DNA from: Elusimicrobia bacterium GWA2_51_34
Lineage (GTDB): Bacteria; Elusimicrobiota; Elusimicrobia; Elusimicrobiales; UBA9959
Length of the DNA: 64,000 bases
NCBI GenBank assembly: GCA_001799565.1
Contig: MGTS01000020.1
Span: 1,104 to 65,103, forward strand
Direction of reading: 5' to 3'
Below are positions 321 through 61,452 of the stretch, piece by piece (position 1 is the stretch's first letter; each line of letters begins with the position of its first letter). The notes under the pieces were generated by a model. That model had not been told where the DNA came from, made no database searches, and saw only the letters and a program-made list of their open reading frames with translations. The position numbers and the translations under genes were made by a program.

Positions 321-394
321 GCTGGTAGGCTAGTATGCGGGTATGCCTTATAGAGGAATTCCTTAAAAGCCTACAAGCTTACCCGCCTACCAGC
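321..394. repeat. Periodic-arm inverted repeat, GGTAGGC/AGTATGC type (nusG-rplK spacer)
   Basis: The arms are built of 8-nt units (GCTGGTAG GCTAGTAT GCGGGTAT / GCCTACAA GCTTACCC GCCTACCA). The loop contains GGAATTCC (355-362). Confidence 0.85.
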
Positions 395-423
395 GGTTCT
401 ACTCATAACTATTGCGAGGTATT

Positions 424-858
424 ATGGCCAAAGTAAAAAAAATAAAGACAATGATAAAGCTGCAGATTCCGGCAGGCGCTGCGAATCCCGCTCCGCCCGT
501 GGGCCCCGCTCTGGGCCAGCACGGAGTCAACATAATGGATTTTTGTAAGCAGTTCAACGAAAAAACCAAGAAGCTTGAACAAGGCGTGCCGATACCGGTT
601 GTTATTACGGTGTTCGAAGACAGGACTTTTATCTTCGTCACCAAAATGCCGCCGATGTCCGCGCTGGTGAAAAAAGCGGCGGGACTTGCCAAGGGGTCCG
701 GCGAGGCCAACAAGACGAAAGTCGGCAAGCTGGAACTTAAACAGGTTGAGGAAATTGCCAGGATAAAACTGCCGGACCTTAACACCAAGGATATAAAGCA
801 GGCCATGAAAATGGTGAAGGGCACCGCCCGCAGCATGGGCGTGGATGTTGCAGAGTAA
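424..858 (+). CDS. rplK: 50S ribosomal protein L11
   Basis: '[45 protein letters not shown]' is a classic L11 N-terminus. The ATG at 424 is preceded by GAGGT. The track start at 412 is probably too early. Confidence 0.95.
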
Positions 859-868
859 CAGAAGTGGT

Positions 869-917
869 CAGTAACCAGTAACCAGTAACCAGTAACCAGT
901 AACCAGTAACCAGTAAC
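869..917. repeat. Perfect tandem heptamer (CAGTAAC)x7 (rplK-rplA spacer)
   Basis: There are seven exact copies, flanked by degenerate units. No complementary arm was found. Confidence 0.95.
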
Positions 918-1004
918 TGGATACCGGAGTAAACCGGTAACCGCAGTTGAAGAGGGAGCGGACCCTCAAAAGGGCGCCGCGCTAAAACCTCAAAGGACAA
1001 TAAA

Positions 1005-1688
1005 ATGGGAAAGAGACTTGCTGCCATAAAAAAAGGACTGGAGCTTGTAAAAAAGTACAAAGTGGGTGAGGCTGTGGCGATAGTAAAAAAGAACGCCAAT
1101 GCCAAGTTCGACGAGACTGTGGAACTTCACATAAAGCTGGGAATAGATGTGAAACAGTCGGACCAGCAGGTGCGTGGTATTATAAGCCTGCCGCACGGCA
1201 CCGGCAAGACCAAAAAGGTGGCCGTCATTGCTAAGGGCGAAAAGACCCAGGAAGCTCAGGATGCCGGAGCCGACATGGTGGGCGGCGCGGAGTTGATAGA
1301 GAAAATTTTCAAGGGTTTTATGGATTTTGACGTGCTTGTAGTGACCCCCGACATGATGAAAGACGCGGCGAAACTCGGTAAAACGCTTGGCCCCCGCGGA
1401 CTTATGCCCAACCCCAAAAGCGGAACCGTAACTTTTGATATAGCTAAGACGGTCAAAGAATTGAAGGCCGGCCGCATTGAATTTAAAGCCGACCCCCAGG
1501 GTATCGTTCACGCGCCTGCCGGCAAGGCCTCGTTCCCTGAAGGCAGTCTTGTGGAAAATGTGCAGGCTATCATAGACGCCGTGCTTAAAAGCAAACCGGC
1601 TTCTTCAAAGGGCGTGTATATGCAATCCGTTTTCATAAGTTCAACTATGGGCCCGGGCTTGCCCGTTCTGGTTGAAAAAGCGGGATAA
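1005..1688 (+). CDS. rplA: 50S ribosomal protein L1
   Basis: A 227-aa ORF with L1-like '[31 protein letters not shown]' and '[15 protein letters not shown]'. It follows rplK. Confidence 0.95.
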
Positions 1689-1729
1689 AGCCAGGGGGAT
1701 ATGTAAATTTGCGTAACTGCTCAGATAGC

Positions 1730-1788
1730 CAGAATTCAGGAGTCAGGAGTCAGAAGTCGGAATTCTGAATTCTGACTCCTGATTTCTG
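1730..1788. repeat. Periodic-arm hairpin, CAGAATT/CAGGAGT type (rplA-hppA spacer)
   Basis: The units read CAGAATT CAGGAGT CAGGAGT CAGAAGT CGGAATT CTGAATT CTGACTC CTGATTT CTG, with a strict 7-nt period. The two halves are largely complementary, and the centre is GGAATTCTGA. Confidence 0.9.
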
Positions 1789-1825
1789 TTTACCGGAGTA
1801 ATAACATTTTGCGAAGGGGAATATA

Positions 1826-59193: not shown

Positions 59194-59210
59194 ATTTAAG
59201 AAACTTCATT

Positions 59211-59362
59211 TGCCTTAAGCCATAAGGGCGCCGCGCCCGCTATAAGCCGTAAATTTTAGATATGGCTATTGCCTTAGGCCATAAGCCGTAAGCCATATGT
59301 CAGTAAGAAACTCCTTAAAAGCTTATGTAGTCTTTCTGCTTATGGCTTACGGCTTATGGCAG
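59211..59362. repeat. GCCATAAG-type composite periodic element (murJ-uvrC spacer)
   Basis: GCCTTAGGCCATAAGCCGTAAGCCATATG ... GCTTATGGCTTACGGCTTATGGCAGCC. The loop contains GAAACTCCT (59307-59315). A second partial copy lies at 59211-59270. Confidence 0.85.
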
Positions 59363-59366
59363 CCGG

Positions 59367-60920
59367 TTAAAACAGTCCCCGTGTCACAAGTTTTCTGTCT
59401 TCACAGCCGAGCGCTTTCAGGGCCCAAAAATAAACCGTAAGCCCGGACGCTACGCCAAGCGCGGTCATTGCCGCCGGTGAGAGGAATCTTTCAAAAGAAA
59501 GTTTTACGGCCATCACCGCGAAGCCCATGGCGGCCGCCGCCGCCGCTATCTTTAAAAAAGTTCTCTTGTCTCCTAAACCCGAAAACCCAGTATCTTTTTC
59601 AAGCCGCGACAGTAAAAAAACAGCCGCGCCCCACGAACTAAGGCTGGTGGCGAGCATCAGCCCTTTAAGCCCCATTGCCCGCATGAGCGGGAACCCCAGC
59701 AGGGCATTCGCGCCTAACTGGAGAAACAGAACTTTAATCGGCAGCGTGTTTTTCCCCGCGCCGTAGAAAGCCGAGACCGCTATTTTATTGGCGCCGAAGG
59801 CCGGCAGGCCAAGCGCCAGGAACAAAATGGCCTGCGAGGTCAGCGCGCTTTGCTCGTATGTGAAGCGGCCGTGTTCAAAAAGGGCGCGTGAAACAGGAAG
59901 GCTTAAAAAAACAAGGCCGATGGCCGCCGGCAGCATGATAAGGGCCGTGGTTTTAAAGGCGTGTTCAAGCGTTGCCGCGTTTGCACGTTTGTCGCCGGAG
60001 ATGGCCGACATTCTTGAAAGTTCAGGCAGGCTGACCGCGGCGGCCGAGACGGCAAAAAGCGAAACGGGAAACTGCACGATGCGGGCTGAGTTATATATGG
60101 CGGTAATTGAGCCTGGCGCCAGGAAACTGGCATAAACCGTGTTTATAAGCATGGAAAGCTGGTCCTGCGCGAGCGCGGCGGCCGCGGGTATTGCGAGCGC
60201 CAGGGCCTGAGCTCCGTTTATGGCGCGCCCCGGCGCGCTAAGGCCCAGGCAAAAACCTTCCTTTCGTATCATGGGGGCCAGTACTGCCAGCTGCGCCAGG
60301 CCGGAGGCCGAAGCCACGGCGGCTAAAAGAGTCATTTTATGGGCGGGGTTTAAAGACGCGGCAAACCCCGCATGCATGAAAAGCAGGCAGGCTATAATAG
60401 ACAGGGAAAACACCGCGGGAGCCAGCGCCGGCGCGAAAAACCTGCGCGCGGCGTTTAAAGCCGCCTGTACAAGCGCGGCCGCGTTCACAAAAATAAGGTG
60501 CGGCATCAGCACTGCGGTAAGAAGCGCCGTAAGCGCGAACTGTTCCGGGTTAGCGGCAAATCCGCCCGTAAAAACCTTCACCAGCGGCCGGCGCAGTAAT
60601 ATGCCCGCCAGTGCCAGCGCCGCCGATACGCATAAAATAAGCGTCCAGACGGAGGAGAAAAAAGCCTTCGCGTCTTCTTCCGATTTGGCGCGTTCTTTTT
60701 CCAGCAGGGGGATGAAAGCGGCGTTAATCGCTCCCTCACCCGCGGTACGCCTGAAAACATTCACCAGTCTGAAAGCGGCGTAGTAGGCGTCGGTAAGCGC
60801 CCCGCCCCCGAAGAACGCCACCAGCAGGACGTCTCGGGCGTACCCCAGGAGCTTTGTTATCAGCGAGGCAAAGGCAAAACCGGATACGTTCTTTGCGAAC
60901 AAATTTGATTTTTCGCTCAT
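59367..60920 (-). CDS. murJ: Lipid II flippase MurJ (MviN)
   Basis: A 517-aa polytopic ORF. 'SLITKLLGYARDVLLVAFFGGGALTDAYYAAFRLVNVFRR' is the MurJ N-terminal signature. Confidence 0.85.
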   Translation of the reverse strand: MSEKSNLFAKNVSGFAFASLITKLLGYARDVLLVAFFGGGALTDAYYAAFRLVNVFRRTAGEGAINAAFIPLLEKERAKSEEDAKAFFSSVWTLILCVSAALALAGILLRRPLVKVFTGGFAANPEQFALTALLTAVLMPHLIFVNAAALVQAALNAARRFFAPALAPAVFSLSIIACLLFMHAGFAASLNPAHKMTLLAAVASASGLAQLAVLAPMIRKEGFCLGLSAPGRAINGAQALALAIPAAAALAQDQLSMLINTVYASFLAPGSITAIYNSARIVQFPVSLFAVSAAAVSLPELSRMSAISGDKRANAATLEHAFKTTALIMLPAAIGLVFLSLPVSRALFEHGRFTYEQSALTSQAILFLALGLPAFGANKIAVSAFYGAGKNTLPIKVLFLQLGANALLGFPLMRAMGLKGLMLATSLSSWGAAVFLLSRLEKDTGFSGLGDKRTFLKIAAAAAAMGFAVMAVKLSFERFLSPAAMTALGVASGLTVYFWALKALGCEDRKLVTRGLF

Positions 60921-60950
60921 AAAGTGATAAACTGTTGCTGTTCAGGTAGA

Positions 60951-61066
60951 CAGAATTCAGAAGTCAGAATTCAGAATGGCCTGTGAATAGGCCTCCAAGG
61001 ATTTGCCGGTCTCTTCAAGCAGCTTTCTTCGATATTCTGACTACTGACTTCTGAATTCTGACTCCT
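60951..61066. repeat. CAGAATT-type periodic-arm inverted repeat between divergent murJ and rpsT
   Basis: CAGAATTCAGAAGTCAGAATTCAGAATGG ... ATTCTGACTACTGACTTCTGAATTCTGACTCCT. It uses the same unit family as 1730-1788. Confidence 0.9.
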
Positions 61067-61100
61067 AACTGCCTGAGTAGTTACGGTAAACTATAATAAT

Positions 61101-61397
61101 ATGGCTAAACTTAAGACCGGACGACATACCAGCGCTATTAAAGCGCACCGTAAATCCGAGCGTCTGGCCTCCAGAAACAGGGGCGTCCATGCCAGGATTC
61201 ATGACGCAGCTAAGGAATTTGACGGCTTGATCGCCAAAAAGGACGTGGAAAACGCGCAGAAACTGCTGCCGAAGGTCCACGCGCTCCTTGATAAGGCCGC
61301 CAAGACCGGCACCATCCACTGGAAGGCCGCCGCCCGCAGGAAATCACGACTTGCCCTGCGCATAAAAACCGCTGTACAGATAACGAATAACAAATAG
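61101..61397 (+). CDS. rpsT: 30S ribosomal protein S20
   Basis: 'MAKLKTGRHTSAIKAHRKSERLASRNRGVHARI' is S20-like. The ORF is basic and 98 aa. Confidence 0.9.
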   Translation: MAKLKTGRHTSAIKAHRKSERLASRNRGVHARIHDAAKEFDGLIAKKDVENAQKLLPKVHALLDKAAKTGTIHWKAAARRKSRLALRIKTAVQITNNK

Positions 61398-61452
61398 CGA
61401 ATAGTGAACAGGGGTTTTAGTTCCTTCCCTTTTCACTGCTTCGCTATTTTGC
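61391..61452. repeat. CGAATAG-type hairpin at the rpsT stop (between convergent rpsT and holA)
   Basis: CAAATAGCGAATAGTGAACAGGGG ... CCCTTTTCACTGCTTCGCTATTTTGC. The loop contains TAGTTCCT. Confidence 0.85.

Follow-up and report, generated by a model that had tools for sequence, protein, structure and literature searches.

Long periodic-arm hairpins in the spacers of an Elusimicrobia genome and the short core shared by the apices of some of them

A 64,000-nt stretch of the genome of Elusimicrobia bacterium GWA2_51_34 (contig MGTS01000020.1, positions 1,104 to 65,103; hereafter the window) carries, between its genes, long hairpins whose arms consist of short tandem units. An earlier note on this DNA proposed that a GGAAnTyCT(GA) core recurs in the loops of otherwise unrelated hairpins of this kind, and that the core is a specific recognition site for a protein or an RNA, presented at the tip of a variable stem. 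The locus thus raises the question of whether the core is a real and general feature of these elements and whether its conservation calls for a dedicated reader. The core motif was found to be real and specific to the centres of periodic hairpins. As for its origin, it is best explained, although tentatively and at somewhat less than an even chance, as the apical module of a transcribed, copy-and-paste family of palindromic repeats, kept by descent and by the constraints of the hairpin.

The elements in the window were detected by reading every spacer and by Tandem Repeats Finder. Approximately 21 spacers were found to hold long imperfect palindromes of 60-150 nt, the arms of which were head-to-tail 7- or 8-nt units, including GCTRGTAK, TAGGCTGT, AGCGAAT, GCCATAA, CAGAATT/AGTCAGG, CAGTGGT, AAGTGATT, AGATGCAA, and AGTCTCAG. 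At least 10 arm families were present in one genome, and almost all elements contained arrays that the program assigned to period 7 or 8. In 518 kb of Elusimicrobia loci, 31 arrays of period 7 and 9 of period 8 were obtained, compared with a combined 8 for periods 6, 9, and 11, none for periods 5 and 10, and 2 in shuffled sequence. Sixteen elements were folded as RNA and compared with 200 dinucleotide shuffles each. Fold stability exceeded that of all 200 shuffles in 13 of the 16 (z -4.1 to -7.4), and the remaining three, at 21867, 39022, and 63155, gave z values of -2.0 to -3.7. Whichever strand was read, the 5' arm was G-rich, C-poor, and crowded with stop codons; in 6 of 21 5' arms every reading frame was closed within 30 nt, which was true of only 1 of 21 3' arms and 1.3% of random 30-mers. 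The elements sit inside operons, with the base of the hairpin usually 0-6 nt past a stop codon and 3-27 nt ahead of the next start, and the stop codon of the upstream gene lies within the array at dnaX, rpsT, and hppA.

The core is a quasi-palindrome, GGA-R-N0-2-TYC-Y, whose ideal form is TTAAGG-ARYT-CCTTAA (TTTTAAGGAGTTCCTTAAAA; also as TTTTAAGG-AGTT-CCTTAAAA). Across genomes, it was laid out as an A/T-rich shoulder, AAGG, a 4-5-nt A-R-Y-T loop (AATT, AGTT, AACT, or AAATT), CCTT, and another A/T-rich shoulder. In the predicted fold it forms the last few base pairs, clamped by GG:CC or GG:CU, together with the tetraloop. All 12 strings listed in the earlier note were recovered at their positions, and each lies within or adjacent to a hairpin centre. 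Most of them contained the core; AAATCTGATT (45481 and 51435), TAGTTCCT (61418), and the site at 13673 had no GGA..TCC. Within the 7.1 kb of non-coding window DNA, GGAR-N0-2-TYCY occurred 15 times, against 4.6±2.5 in dinucleotide shuffles, so the motif exceeds the frequency expected from spacer composition, and its density was 2.1/kb in non-coding and 0.67/kb in coding DNA. The longer form GGAA..TYCTGA was found 5 times where 0.1 was expected, and TCTGA was present in 6 of 22 hairpin centres where 0.5 was expected. The strict core occupied the geometric centre of 6 of the 21 window elements, or 7 if GGAGTTCC at 5150, which was missed because the centre of its element had been placed inexactly, is added, and about 10 of the 21 qualified with loose variants. 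The core is therefore missing from more than half of the elements.

Since the pattern had been picked after seeing the window data, it was retested on genomes that the earlier note had not covered. Hairpins were found automatically in related loci, and a core was counted if it lay within 12 nt of the centre. Of 20 periodic hairpins, 7 had it there; among the controls it was found in 3 of 377 non-periodic hairpins, in none of 40 windows placed on arms, and in 1.1% of windows drawn at random (Fisher p = 3e-8). Three of the seven core-bearing hairpins were mutually orthologous, and the enrichment held when these were counted once.

The same apex was also found on different stems. A 13-mer, AAGGAGTTCCTTA, tops GGGTTAG-type arms in the nadK-recN spacer (related loci L211 and L212; L-numbers denote loci of related genomes or metagenomes), GATCGAA-type arms in the rplK-rplA spacer (L014 and L021), and GCCATAA-type arms (L143 and L092), and near variants of it top GGGTATAG, GCCGTAA, and GCTRGTAK arms. 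Stretches of 13-19 identical nt were shared by elements with unrelated arms. In four orthologous elements, 16 of 21 apical columns were invariant, compared with 33 of 67 arm columns, and pairing was kept, with compensatory changes at 7 of 33 pairs. The variant GGAAnTTCTGA is the core module with a G.U pair, and it lay on the sense strand at 5 of 5 sites. The central tetranucleotide occurred in both orientations, namely AGTT in L014 and its exact reverse complement AACT in L028, which argues against a strand-specific reader of the loop. When metagenomes were scanned with an exact 14-mer, AAGGAGTTCCTTAA, approximately 115 usable matches were obtained, of which 2 were in periodic hairpins (L143 and L092); the other ~113 were chance matches, mostly in coding DNA (K-E-F-L), or belonged to one unrelated conserved leader.

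A core that is kept while the arms change was thus observed for AAGGAGTTCCTTA on at least three arm families, the strongest evidence for it, and for the apices of the four orthologues, but not throughout. In the CAGAATT and GATTACACAGATT families it was the arms that were conserved and the centre that was not. CAGAATT arms were ~90% conserved in the window, L213, L214, and L216 around a centre of 30 to 80 nt, and the GATTACACAGATT element had conserved arms in the window and L212, the centre of the latter being different and without GGAAATTCTGA. In the nusG-rplK spacer of the closest relative, both the arm family and the apex were others. Nor do the arms differ completely between loci, as a handful of arm families recur within the window and across genomes: arms were common to the elements at 1730 and 60934, and window families were found again in other genomes. 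The cores at 355, 5150, and 36417, listed earlier as lying in unrelated elements, belong to three copies of one family. Similarly, the identical 10-mer at 45481 and 51435 is no independent recurrence because the elements at 45437 and 51396 are paralogues, 87% identical over 47 nt. The distance from core to next start codon, given earlier as 45-80 nt, was measured as 51-69 nt, which equals one arm and a short leader.

Among the individual elements, the three GCTRGTAK copies are 8-mer hairpins on the plus strand. The one in the nusG-rplK spacer (319-396, z -4.2) has the core GGAATTCC at 355-362 with the apex AGG[AAUU]CCU, and is ~80% identical over its full length to its paralogues at 5081 and 36372 (5116-5191 and 36388-36457). 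The second lies upstream of infC (5081-5196, z -4.6, core GGAGTTCC at 5150-5157) and the third between a 283-aa open reading frame (ORF) and dnaX (36372-36457, z -4.4), where the core GGAATTTCTGA at 36417-36427 has a G.U pair in the sense strand. In the rplA-hppA spacer, a plus-strand hairpin of the CAGAATT/AGTCAGG 7-mer family (1730-1788, z -6.9) has the core GGAATTCTGA at 1759-1768, which overlaps the arm unit; at 1759 the core itself belongs to that unit (GAATTCTGAATTCTGA). The plus-strand hairpin with GATTACACAGATT arms (21491-21574, z -4.8) follows a small GC hairpin at 21469-21488 and carries the core GGAAATTCTGA at 21526-21536 in the fold UAUCGGG[AAAU]UCUGAUA, and the next one, with GGGG/TAGCGG-type arms (21867-21941, plus strand, z -2.0), has the core GGAACTCC(T) at 21901-21909 with the apex GG[AACU]CC. 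At the dnaX-recR junction, an AGCGAAT 7-mer hairpin (38354-38420, plus strand, z -4.8) contains the dnaX stop codon in its 5' arm and GGAAACTCTGA at 38374-38384, with GGAAA paired to UUUCC. The minus-strand GCCATAA 7-mer hairpin of the murJ-uvrC spacer (59278-59360, z -7.4) carries UUAAGGAGUUUCUUACUGA on its sense strand at 59307-59315 (plus-strand GAAACTCCT); the L211 orthologue has AAGGAATTCCTT, and the family and its apex were also found in L143, L092, and L004.

In other elements the core was weak or missing. Two plus-strand hairpins of the TAGGCTGT 8-mer family, each with z -5.0, have AAATCTGATT as their apical loop without the GGA..TCC core; one (45437-45538, loop 45481-45490) is situated between a conserved promoter-like region and the start of an 890-aa ORF, at a site that is empty in relatives, and the other (51396-51482, loop 51435-51444) fills the pilT-pilC junction. 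A third member, in the leuS-lptE spacer (63161-63231, minus strand, z -2.4), has no core. The AGCGAAT family is represented by a hairpin between the convergent rpsT and holA (61385-61456, no strand assigned, z -4.1), with the rpsT stop codon in the array and a weak core, TAGTTCCT, at 61418-61425, by a long minus-strand hairpin without core at 12691-12829, and by a minus-strand hairpin without a strict core at 15300-15396 (z -6.3), which has three-frame stops in its 5' arm. At 13603-13728 on the minus strand, a composite element (z -2.0 sense, -0.2 antisense) joins a CAGTGGT array and an ATTCGCT/GCGAAGC array around a small hairpin, GAAGCGGA-TGAATT-CCGCTTC, with a core-like GGAATTC at 13673-13680. 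Within it, at 13615-13670, the AGCGAAT array grades into three GCGAAGC units; d(GCGAAGC) is an unusually stable DNA mini-hairpin, and the likeness is possibly a coincidence.

Further hairpins without the core comprised the AAGTGATT 8-mer element with a large multibranched centre at the recR-comEC junction (39024-39153, plus strand, z -3.7), the AGTCTCAG 8-mer element at the nadK-recN junction (42013-42092, plus strand, z -7.4), and a weak hairpin formed by the AGATGCAA 8-mer array in the uvrC-MGMT spacer (57806-57882, minus strand). The long CAGTGGC-type hairpin upstream of pilB (48274-48430, plus strand) has copies of GGAATTC at 48250-48263, outside its centre, and the GCCATAA-family hairpin at the pilB-pilT junction (50208-50294, plus strand, z -4.8) ends in the merely core-like apex GGGAAGUGCUUUCUG. 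The CAGAATT-family element between the divergent murJ and rpsT (60934-61084, no strand assigned) has a large variable centre and TAAACT duplicated at its flanks. A lone tandem array of CAGTAAC x7 without a partner arm lies in the rplK-rplA spacer (869-917, plus strand); in L001 and others, this spacer holds core-bearing periodic hairpins.

Comparison with related genomes revealed considerable turnover. Sister genomes carried different families in the orthologous spacers nadK-recN, uvrC<-murJ, lptE<-leuS, and hppA-DUF218. For instance, the nadK-recN spacer has AGTCTCAG arms in the window and GGGTTAG-type arms with AAGGAGTTCCTTA in L211 and L212, and the lptE<-leuS spacer has the TAGGCTGT family in the window and GGGTATAG arms with AAGGAACTCC in L211. 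Conversely, the same element was found at non-orthologous places: the GATTACACAGATT element at 21469 in the window and in the pilT-pilC spacer of L212, and the CAGAATT element at murJ<>rpsT in the window and at uvrC<-murJ in L213, L214, and L216. Filled and empty sites were also observed. The murJ<>rpsT spacer measures 180 nt in the window and 20-44 nt, empty, in relatives, with TAAACT at both element junctions (60931-60936 and 61086-61091) and as a single copy in the empty L211, L213, L214, L215, and L216, and the pilT-pilC junction is 103 nt long in the window and 1-4 nt long in L215 and L216. Upstream of the 890-aa ORF, which had no Pfam match, a block resembling a promoter, with an extended -10 (TTTGTAGAAT), is conserved at 45395-45436, with counterparts at L211 7110-7156, L212 5250-5292, L214 6970-7015, and L216 4500-4541. 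The ATG follows this block by ~15-20 nt in relatives, and a 102-nt periodic hairpin is inserted between the two in the window. In L215, a relative from the same sample (GC 62%), canonical terminators were found and no periodic elements. A periodic element replaces a canonical terminator at rplA-hppA and at the convergent rpsT><holA, where L214 and L215 have the terminator. This behaviour is typical of copy-and-paste repeats. The elements thus appear to be a family of long intergenic palindromes particular to the Elusimicrobiaceae lineage, of which no description was found in Rfam or the searchable literature; nothing relevant was found in the literature on Elusimicrobia hairpin, palindrome, or repeat elements. 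With Rfam, no family reached the gathering score in the window, and at E<=1 only two chance-level matches were obtained, one of a hairpin to a miRNA precursor and one of an ORF-internal stretch to CsrB.

Whether the elements act as RNA was judged from their folds and mismatches. G.U outnumbered A.C mismatches by 37:16 in the window, and in the composite element at 13603-13728 two different arrays pair through G.U only in the sense transcript (z -2.0 vs -0.2). Together with the orientation of the G.U variant of the apex, these results are suggestive of a role of the sense-strand RNA. As for termination, a terminator scan flagged a single element (1755-1777), without enrichment over shuffles; canonical terminators were found elsewhere in the window at 23160, 35357, and 52720. 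We infer that the genome tolerates the elements and has at times co-opted them as RNA hairpins between cistrons or at 3' ends.

The non-orthologous loci and the filled and empty sites show that the elements are copied between spacers. In the preferred explanation, they would be co-transcribed with the neighbouring genes, folding as long RNA hairpins. Those between cistrons or at 3' ends may serve as insulators, stabilisers, or weak terminators. Through the fold, two genes that once abutted would keep the stop codon of the first next to the start codon of the second, and the stop-rich 5' arms would hold ribosomes outside the stem. The core would be shared chiefly through descent and modular exchange among element families; in addition, a long palindrome would need an easily nucleated centre, whether as RNA hairpin or as DNA cruciform, and this need would preserve it. 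As descent and the need for an A/T-rich, GG/CC-clamped centre would account for the conservation, no dedicated trans-acting reader would be required, although a protein, ribosome, or nuclease that reads the core is possible. Several results weigh against this explanation. The exact identity of the 13-mer over three arm families goes beyond what a generic need for a good apex would demand and suits a sequence-specific partner. The excess of G.U over A.C was confined to the window, the ratio being 43:50 in relatives and 80:66 overall (p = 0.28), and selection on the sense-strand RNA is therefore not established. The elements in the 5' untranslated region (UTR) past a promoter (45437) and in the divergent spacer (60934) are at odds with a terminator role, most elements are not followed by a U-tract, and scans for sigma-70 promoter and terminator consensus gave no excess near elements. 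Moreover, flank repeats averaged 3.6 nt, against 3.7 nt in mismatched controls, so that no general target-site duplication was found, 60934-61084 being the sole case, and no transposase or nuclease gene was seen among the surveyed genes, that is, the scanned window ORFs (~30 of ~45) and the called genes of L081-L090 and L211-L217, L001-L044 being unannotated.

Other explanations of the core differ in what, if anything, reads it. The core might be a product of chance or composition, with A/T-rich loops beside G-rich arms spelling GGAA..TTCC, and it is true that the list from which the motif was drawn was loose and post hoc, with several entries lacking the core, that non-core apices are likewise A/T-rich with GAA..TTC-like edges, and that the 14-mer matched mostly by chance in coding DNA (KEFL), with 2 of ~115 matches in periodic hairpins. 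However, the enrichment in the independent set (7/20 vs 3/377, 0/40, and 1.1%), that over dinucleotide shuffles, and the identical 13-19-nt stretches on unrelated arms make this explanation very improbable. We regard as unlikely, but worth keeping in mind, that the apex is a specific RNA recognition site (GGA/AAGGAG) on a variable stem, the periodic stems being mere scaffold. An equally unlikely extension names the readers: the 30S subunit, to which the apex would offer a Shine-Dalgarno (SD)-like standby site or stabiliser, a protein that binds GGA in the manner of CsrA, or an RNase specific for double strands that measures from the A-R-N-N tetraloop. Yeast Rnt1p reads AGNN loops, and GGA is the motif of CsrA. 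Such a site would suit the identity of AAGGAGTTCCTTA across unrelated arm families and genomes, the greater conservation of apex than arms in orthologues, and the sense-strand position of the asymmetric GGAAnTTCTGA at 5/5 sites. AAGGAG is also the local SD consensus, at least 17 relatives have the same TTAAGGA-loop-TCCTTAA hairpin conserved after the SD and before the rplK start (38 matches vs 1.4 expected), and, judged by eye, approximately half of the genes directly downstream of elements have no SD of their own. However, the core is missing from over half of the elements, its loop occurs as both AGTT and AACT, and GG/AAGG is paired to CC/CCTT in the predicted fold, which would largely sequester an SD or GGA. 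Moreover, presence of the core was, by eye, uncorrelated with a missing downstream SD, and the apex lies 50-70 nt from the start codon.

Recognition might instead take place in DNA, where the copying enzyme (HUH/RAYT-like, or another nuclease or recombinase) would recognise or cleave the centre of the palindrome in its hairpin or cruciform state, which we consider doubtful; a variant, in our view just as doubtful, holds that the A/T-rich centre is favoured for cruciform extrusion. In both versions, RNA effects would be by-products. The motif is strand-symmetric, ARYT being its own reverse complement, the apex is exactly inverted between the orthologues L014 and L028, and the mismatch types show no strand bias (G.U:A.C 80:66). 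The non-orthologous loci, the filled and empty sites with one 6-bp flanking duplication, and the one element in a divergent promoter spacer would also fit. However, the surveyed genes included no transposase or nuclease, in particular no RAYT (HUH Y1) transposase, target duplication was not general, and many arm families would need many enzymes unless the apex alone were read, which more than half of the elements could not offer. A bolder idea, for which we see a small chance, is that a factor acts on hairpins with arbitrary periodic stems and recognises them by the GG-ARYT-CC apex and the A/T-rich shoulders around it. The candidates for such a factor, likewise improbable, are a hairpin-specific nuclease or transposase propagating the elements and an RNA-binding or processing protein measuring from the tetraloop.

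Compared with known systems, the elements appear to act most like transcribed palindromic repeats of the REP/BIME, ERIC, and Correia type, built from units resembling heptamer simple-sequence repeats (SSRs). REP, BIME, and REPIN sequences are abundant intergenic palindromes, often past stop codons, which are co-transcribed and have been proposed as mRNA stabilisers or terminators, and they are lineage-specific with rapid turnover (PMC3733652, PMC3116915). In contrast to REPs, which are 20-40 bp long and GC-rich, with conserved stems, a GTAG or CGTC tag, and variable or tiny loops, the present elements measure 60-150 nt and have stems of tandem 7/8-nt units in many families, an A/T-rich centre, and, when the core is present, a conserved apex; GTAG occurs merely inside GCTRGTAG arm units, and there is no terminal tag. 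Some BIMEs carry a protein site (IHF) between inverted REPs, and REPINs are mobilised by RAYT transposases. An IHF site in the L014-type apex (ATCAAGGAGTTC) was rejected because the match is only approximate, stems from the arm unit, and does not extend to the elements in general.

Repeats resembling miniature inverted-repeat transposable elements (MITEs), such as Correia/NEMIS, ERIC, RUP, and the Rickettsia RPE, are non-autonomous, transcribed sequences of ~100-150 bp with inverted ends, which form RNA hairpins, affect mRNA processing, and occur as filled and empty sites between strains (PMC3184786). As in MITEs, the inverted repeats were conserved among copies (CAGAATT ~90%, GCTRGTAK ~80%), and presence or absence at orthologous sites and non-orthologous copies were observed (murJ<>rpsT, the 5' UTR of the 890-aa ORF, pilT-pilC, and nadK-recN). 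Correia elements contain an IHF site at their centre and are cleaved by RNase III. Unlike the MITE-like families above, each with one terminal inverted repeat sequence and a regular target duplication (e.g. TA), the present elements have periodic arms in at least 10 families, a duplication at a single element rather than a regular one, and no known cognate transposase.

Heptamer SSRs are intergenic tandem 7-mers near stop and start codons, with stops in three frames and sometimes overlapping gene ends; for the TAACTGA repeats of Beggiatoaceae, no structure is predicted and a post-transcriptional role has been suggested (PMC4679880). The tandem 7-nt units in non-coding DNA are common to both. 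However, the heptamer SSRs (cyanobacterial STRR, Beggiatoaceae TAACTGA, and the long SSRs of Mrazek et al.) are unfolded arrays of direct repeats, whereas each array here is matched by its reverse complement across a conserved centre, giving a long hairpin; paired arrays had z of -4 to -7, and the only lone array was that at 869-917. Intrinsic terminators are likewise hairpins at gene ends, and in two orthologous spacers a periodic element stands where relatives have a canonical terminator. The present stems are long, imperfect, and not GC-rich, rather than GC-rich stems of 5-15 bp with a direct U-tract, most have no U-tract, and some lie between promoter and gene. The STAB-SD of Bacillus cry genes and CsrA sites also place an SD-like or GGA motif on a hairpin far from the start, in their case single-stranded and with binding shown experimentally; a CsrA target usually has several sites, each with GGA in the unpaired loop of a short hairpin, and one of them overlaps the SD. 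As judged from sequence, the motif here would be largely paired and occurs in a minority of elements; GGA is present 50-70 nt from the start codon and is predicted to be paired (AGG[AAUU]CCU).

Further identities of the core or the elements were tried and rejected. An ECF/sigma-E-like GAACTT..TCTGA promoter did not fit, as the halves are contiguous and not 16-17 nt apart. A small ORF at the core was dismissed because TAA/TGA past the core has no conserved frame and there is no start codon at SD distance. Integron attC sites, imperfect palindromes with R''/L''-L'/R' boxes (GTTRRRY) that follow each mobile cassette and have an intI integrase nearby, were discarded as well: the flanks are syntenic housekeeping genes (rplK, rplA, dnaX, recR, and pilT), no GTTRRRY boxes were visible by eye, and the scanned window ORFs included no integrase.

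The window has a GC content of ~52% and is 100% identical to contig DMBC01000057.1 (metagenome-assembled genome GCA_003446275.1) and to several groundwater metagenome contigs; ribosomal protein L1 of the next-closest species in the genome collection is 92% identical. The scanned ORFs, approximately 30 of ~45, were ordinary and syntenic with relatives, including nusG-rplK-rplA-hppA, infC-rpmI-rplT-pheST, dnaX-recR-comEC-nadK-recN-gltX, pilB-pilT-pilC, uvrC, murJ, rpsT, and holA, and no tRNA genes were found in the window. Ten other public copies of the locus were 99.96-100% identical, 7 of them exactly, and thus carried no strain-level information. Apparent indels among the copies were rejected as strain differences because they were N-gaps, which fell on arrays. 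L081 and L083 are such assemblies, with N runs at L081 6401-6403 (window 4221-4271) and L083 2379-2431 (window 1821-1879). The 51-bp 'indel' of L081 is a scaffold gap, which sits on a short periodic array (AGTGNNN x5) overlapping the hppA stop codon. Periodic repeats thus break short-read and metagenome assemblies.

Two structured leaders were noted in the ribosomal protein operon. In at least 17 relatives (L005, L009, L011-L022, L026, and L031-L033; e.g. L016 9440-9490), the rplK leader has a conserved layout of AAGGAGA, 2-5 nt, the hairpin TTAAGGA-loop-TCCTTAA, 5-8 nt, and ATG. By its position between SD and start, the hairpin could bring the two together or compete for the SD. It is missing at window 297-423, and in the window and L001 it is replaced by periodic hairpins and a new SD (GAGGTATT). 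Before rplA, a conserved structured leader (GAGGGAGCGG..hairpin..CCGCGC.TGAACCTCAAGGAGA) was found at window 940-1004 and in nearly all Elusimicrobia rplK-rplA spacers. It resembles an autoregulatory site bound by L1, and no Rfam family matched it at threshold.

Other repeats were also present. A second family of long hairpins, GC-rich and of the form GGGATTGCCC..CCGCGTAGGAAACC..GGTTTCCC..CCGCTATGCGGCT.CAGAGCAA, occupies window 10285-10400, 56186-56314, and about 30900-31100, as well as L211 14760-14900 and L215 5261-5683 and 13294-13470, and it was also found in relatives without periodic-arm elements. Within genes, a 46-nt segment of recN (42410-42455) is 97.8% identical to one of pheT (8075-8120), lies in frame in both, and encodes SASLNNSFAGPRPFEA; the pheT copy is inside ~80 nt that are absent from relatives, and the segment looks like an in-frame intragenic insertion element similar to the Rickettsia palindromic elements. 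A 26-nt stretch of dnaX (37667-37692) is identical to pheT 8383-8408. In-frame repeats were found in the 890-aa ORF (46851-46961, a 48-nt unit x2.3 with 96% match) and in ORF 27539-29023 (24/54-nt repeats at 27944-28060, EEAARK-like). Within window 54000-57310, the GC content is low at 54-56 kb (41%), and a toxin-antitoxin cluster comes next, with an HI1420-type antidote (56397-56687), a BrnT toxin (56804-57106), and an overlapping small ORF; as the gene content at 54000-57310 varies between relatives, it is suggested to be a variable island.

The significance of these results depends on whether the apex has a reader. If a single factor does recognise the apex on arbitrary stems, the elements would represent a new class of mobile hairpins in bacteria, with the loop as the conserved cis-site and arms free to change by unit slippage. 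Any reader of the apex would make them a bacterial example of a freely varying stem topped by a conserved loop, a logic which, to our knowledge, is known from viral replication origins and yeast RNase III substrates and not from bacterial intergenic repeats. It would also offer a handle on how genes are controlled in the Elusimicrobia, a phylum in which hardly any genetics has been done. If nothing reads the apex, the elements would still be long palindromes that invade tight gene junctions, expanding them from 1-4 nt to ~100 nt with the stop and start held side by side, and that stand in for canonical terminators, give gene ends their stop codons, and break assemblies. In either case, they join heptamer SSRs and palindromes of the REP/MITE type in one structure.

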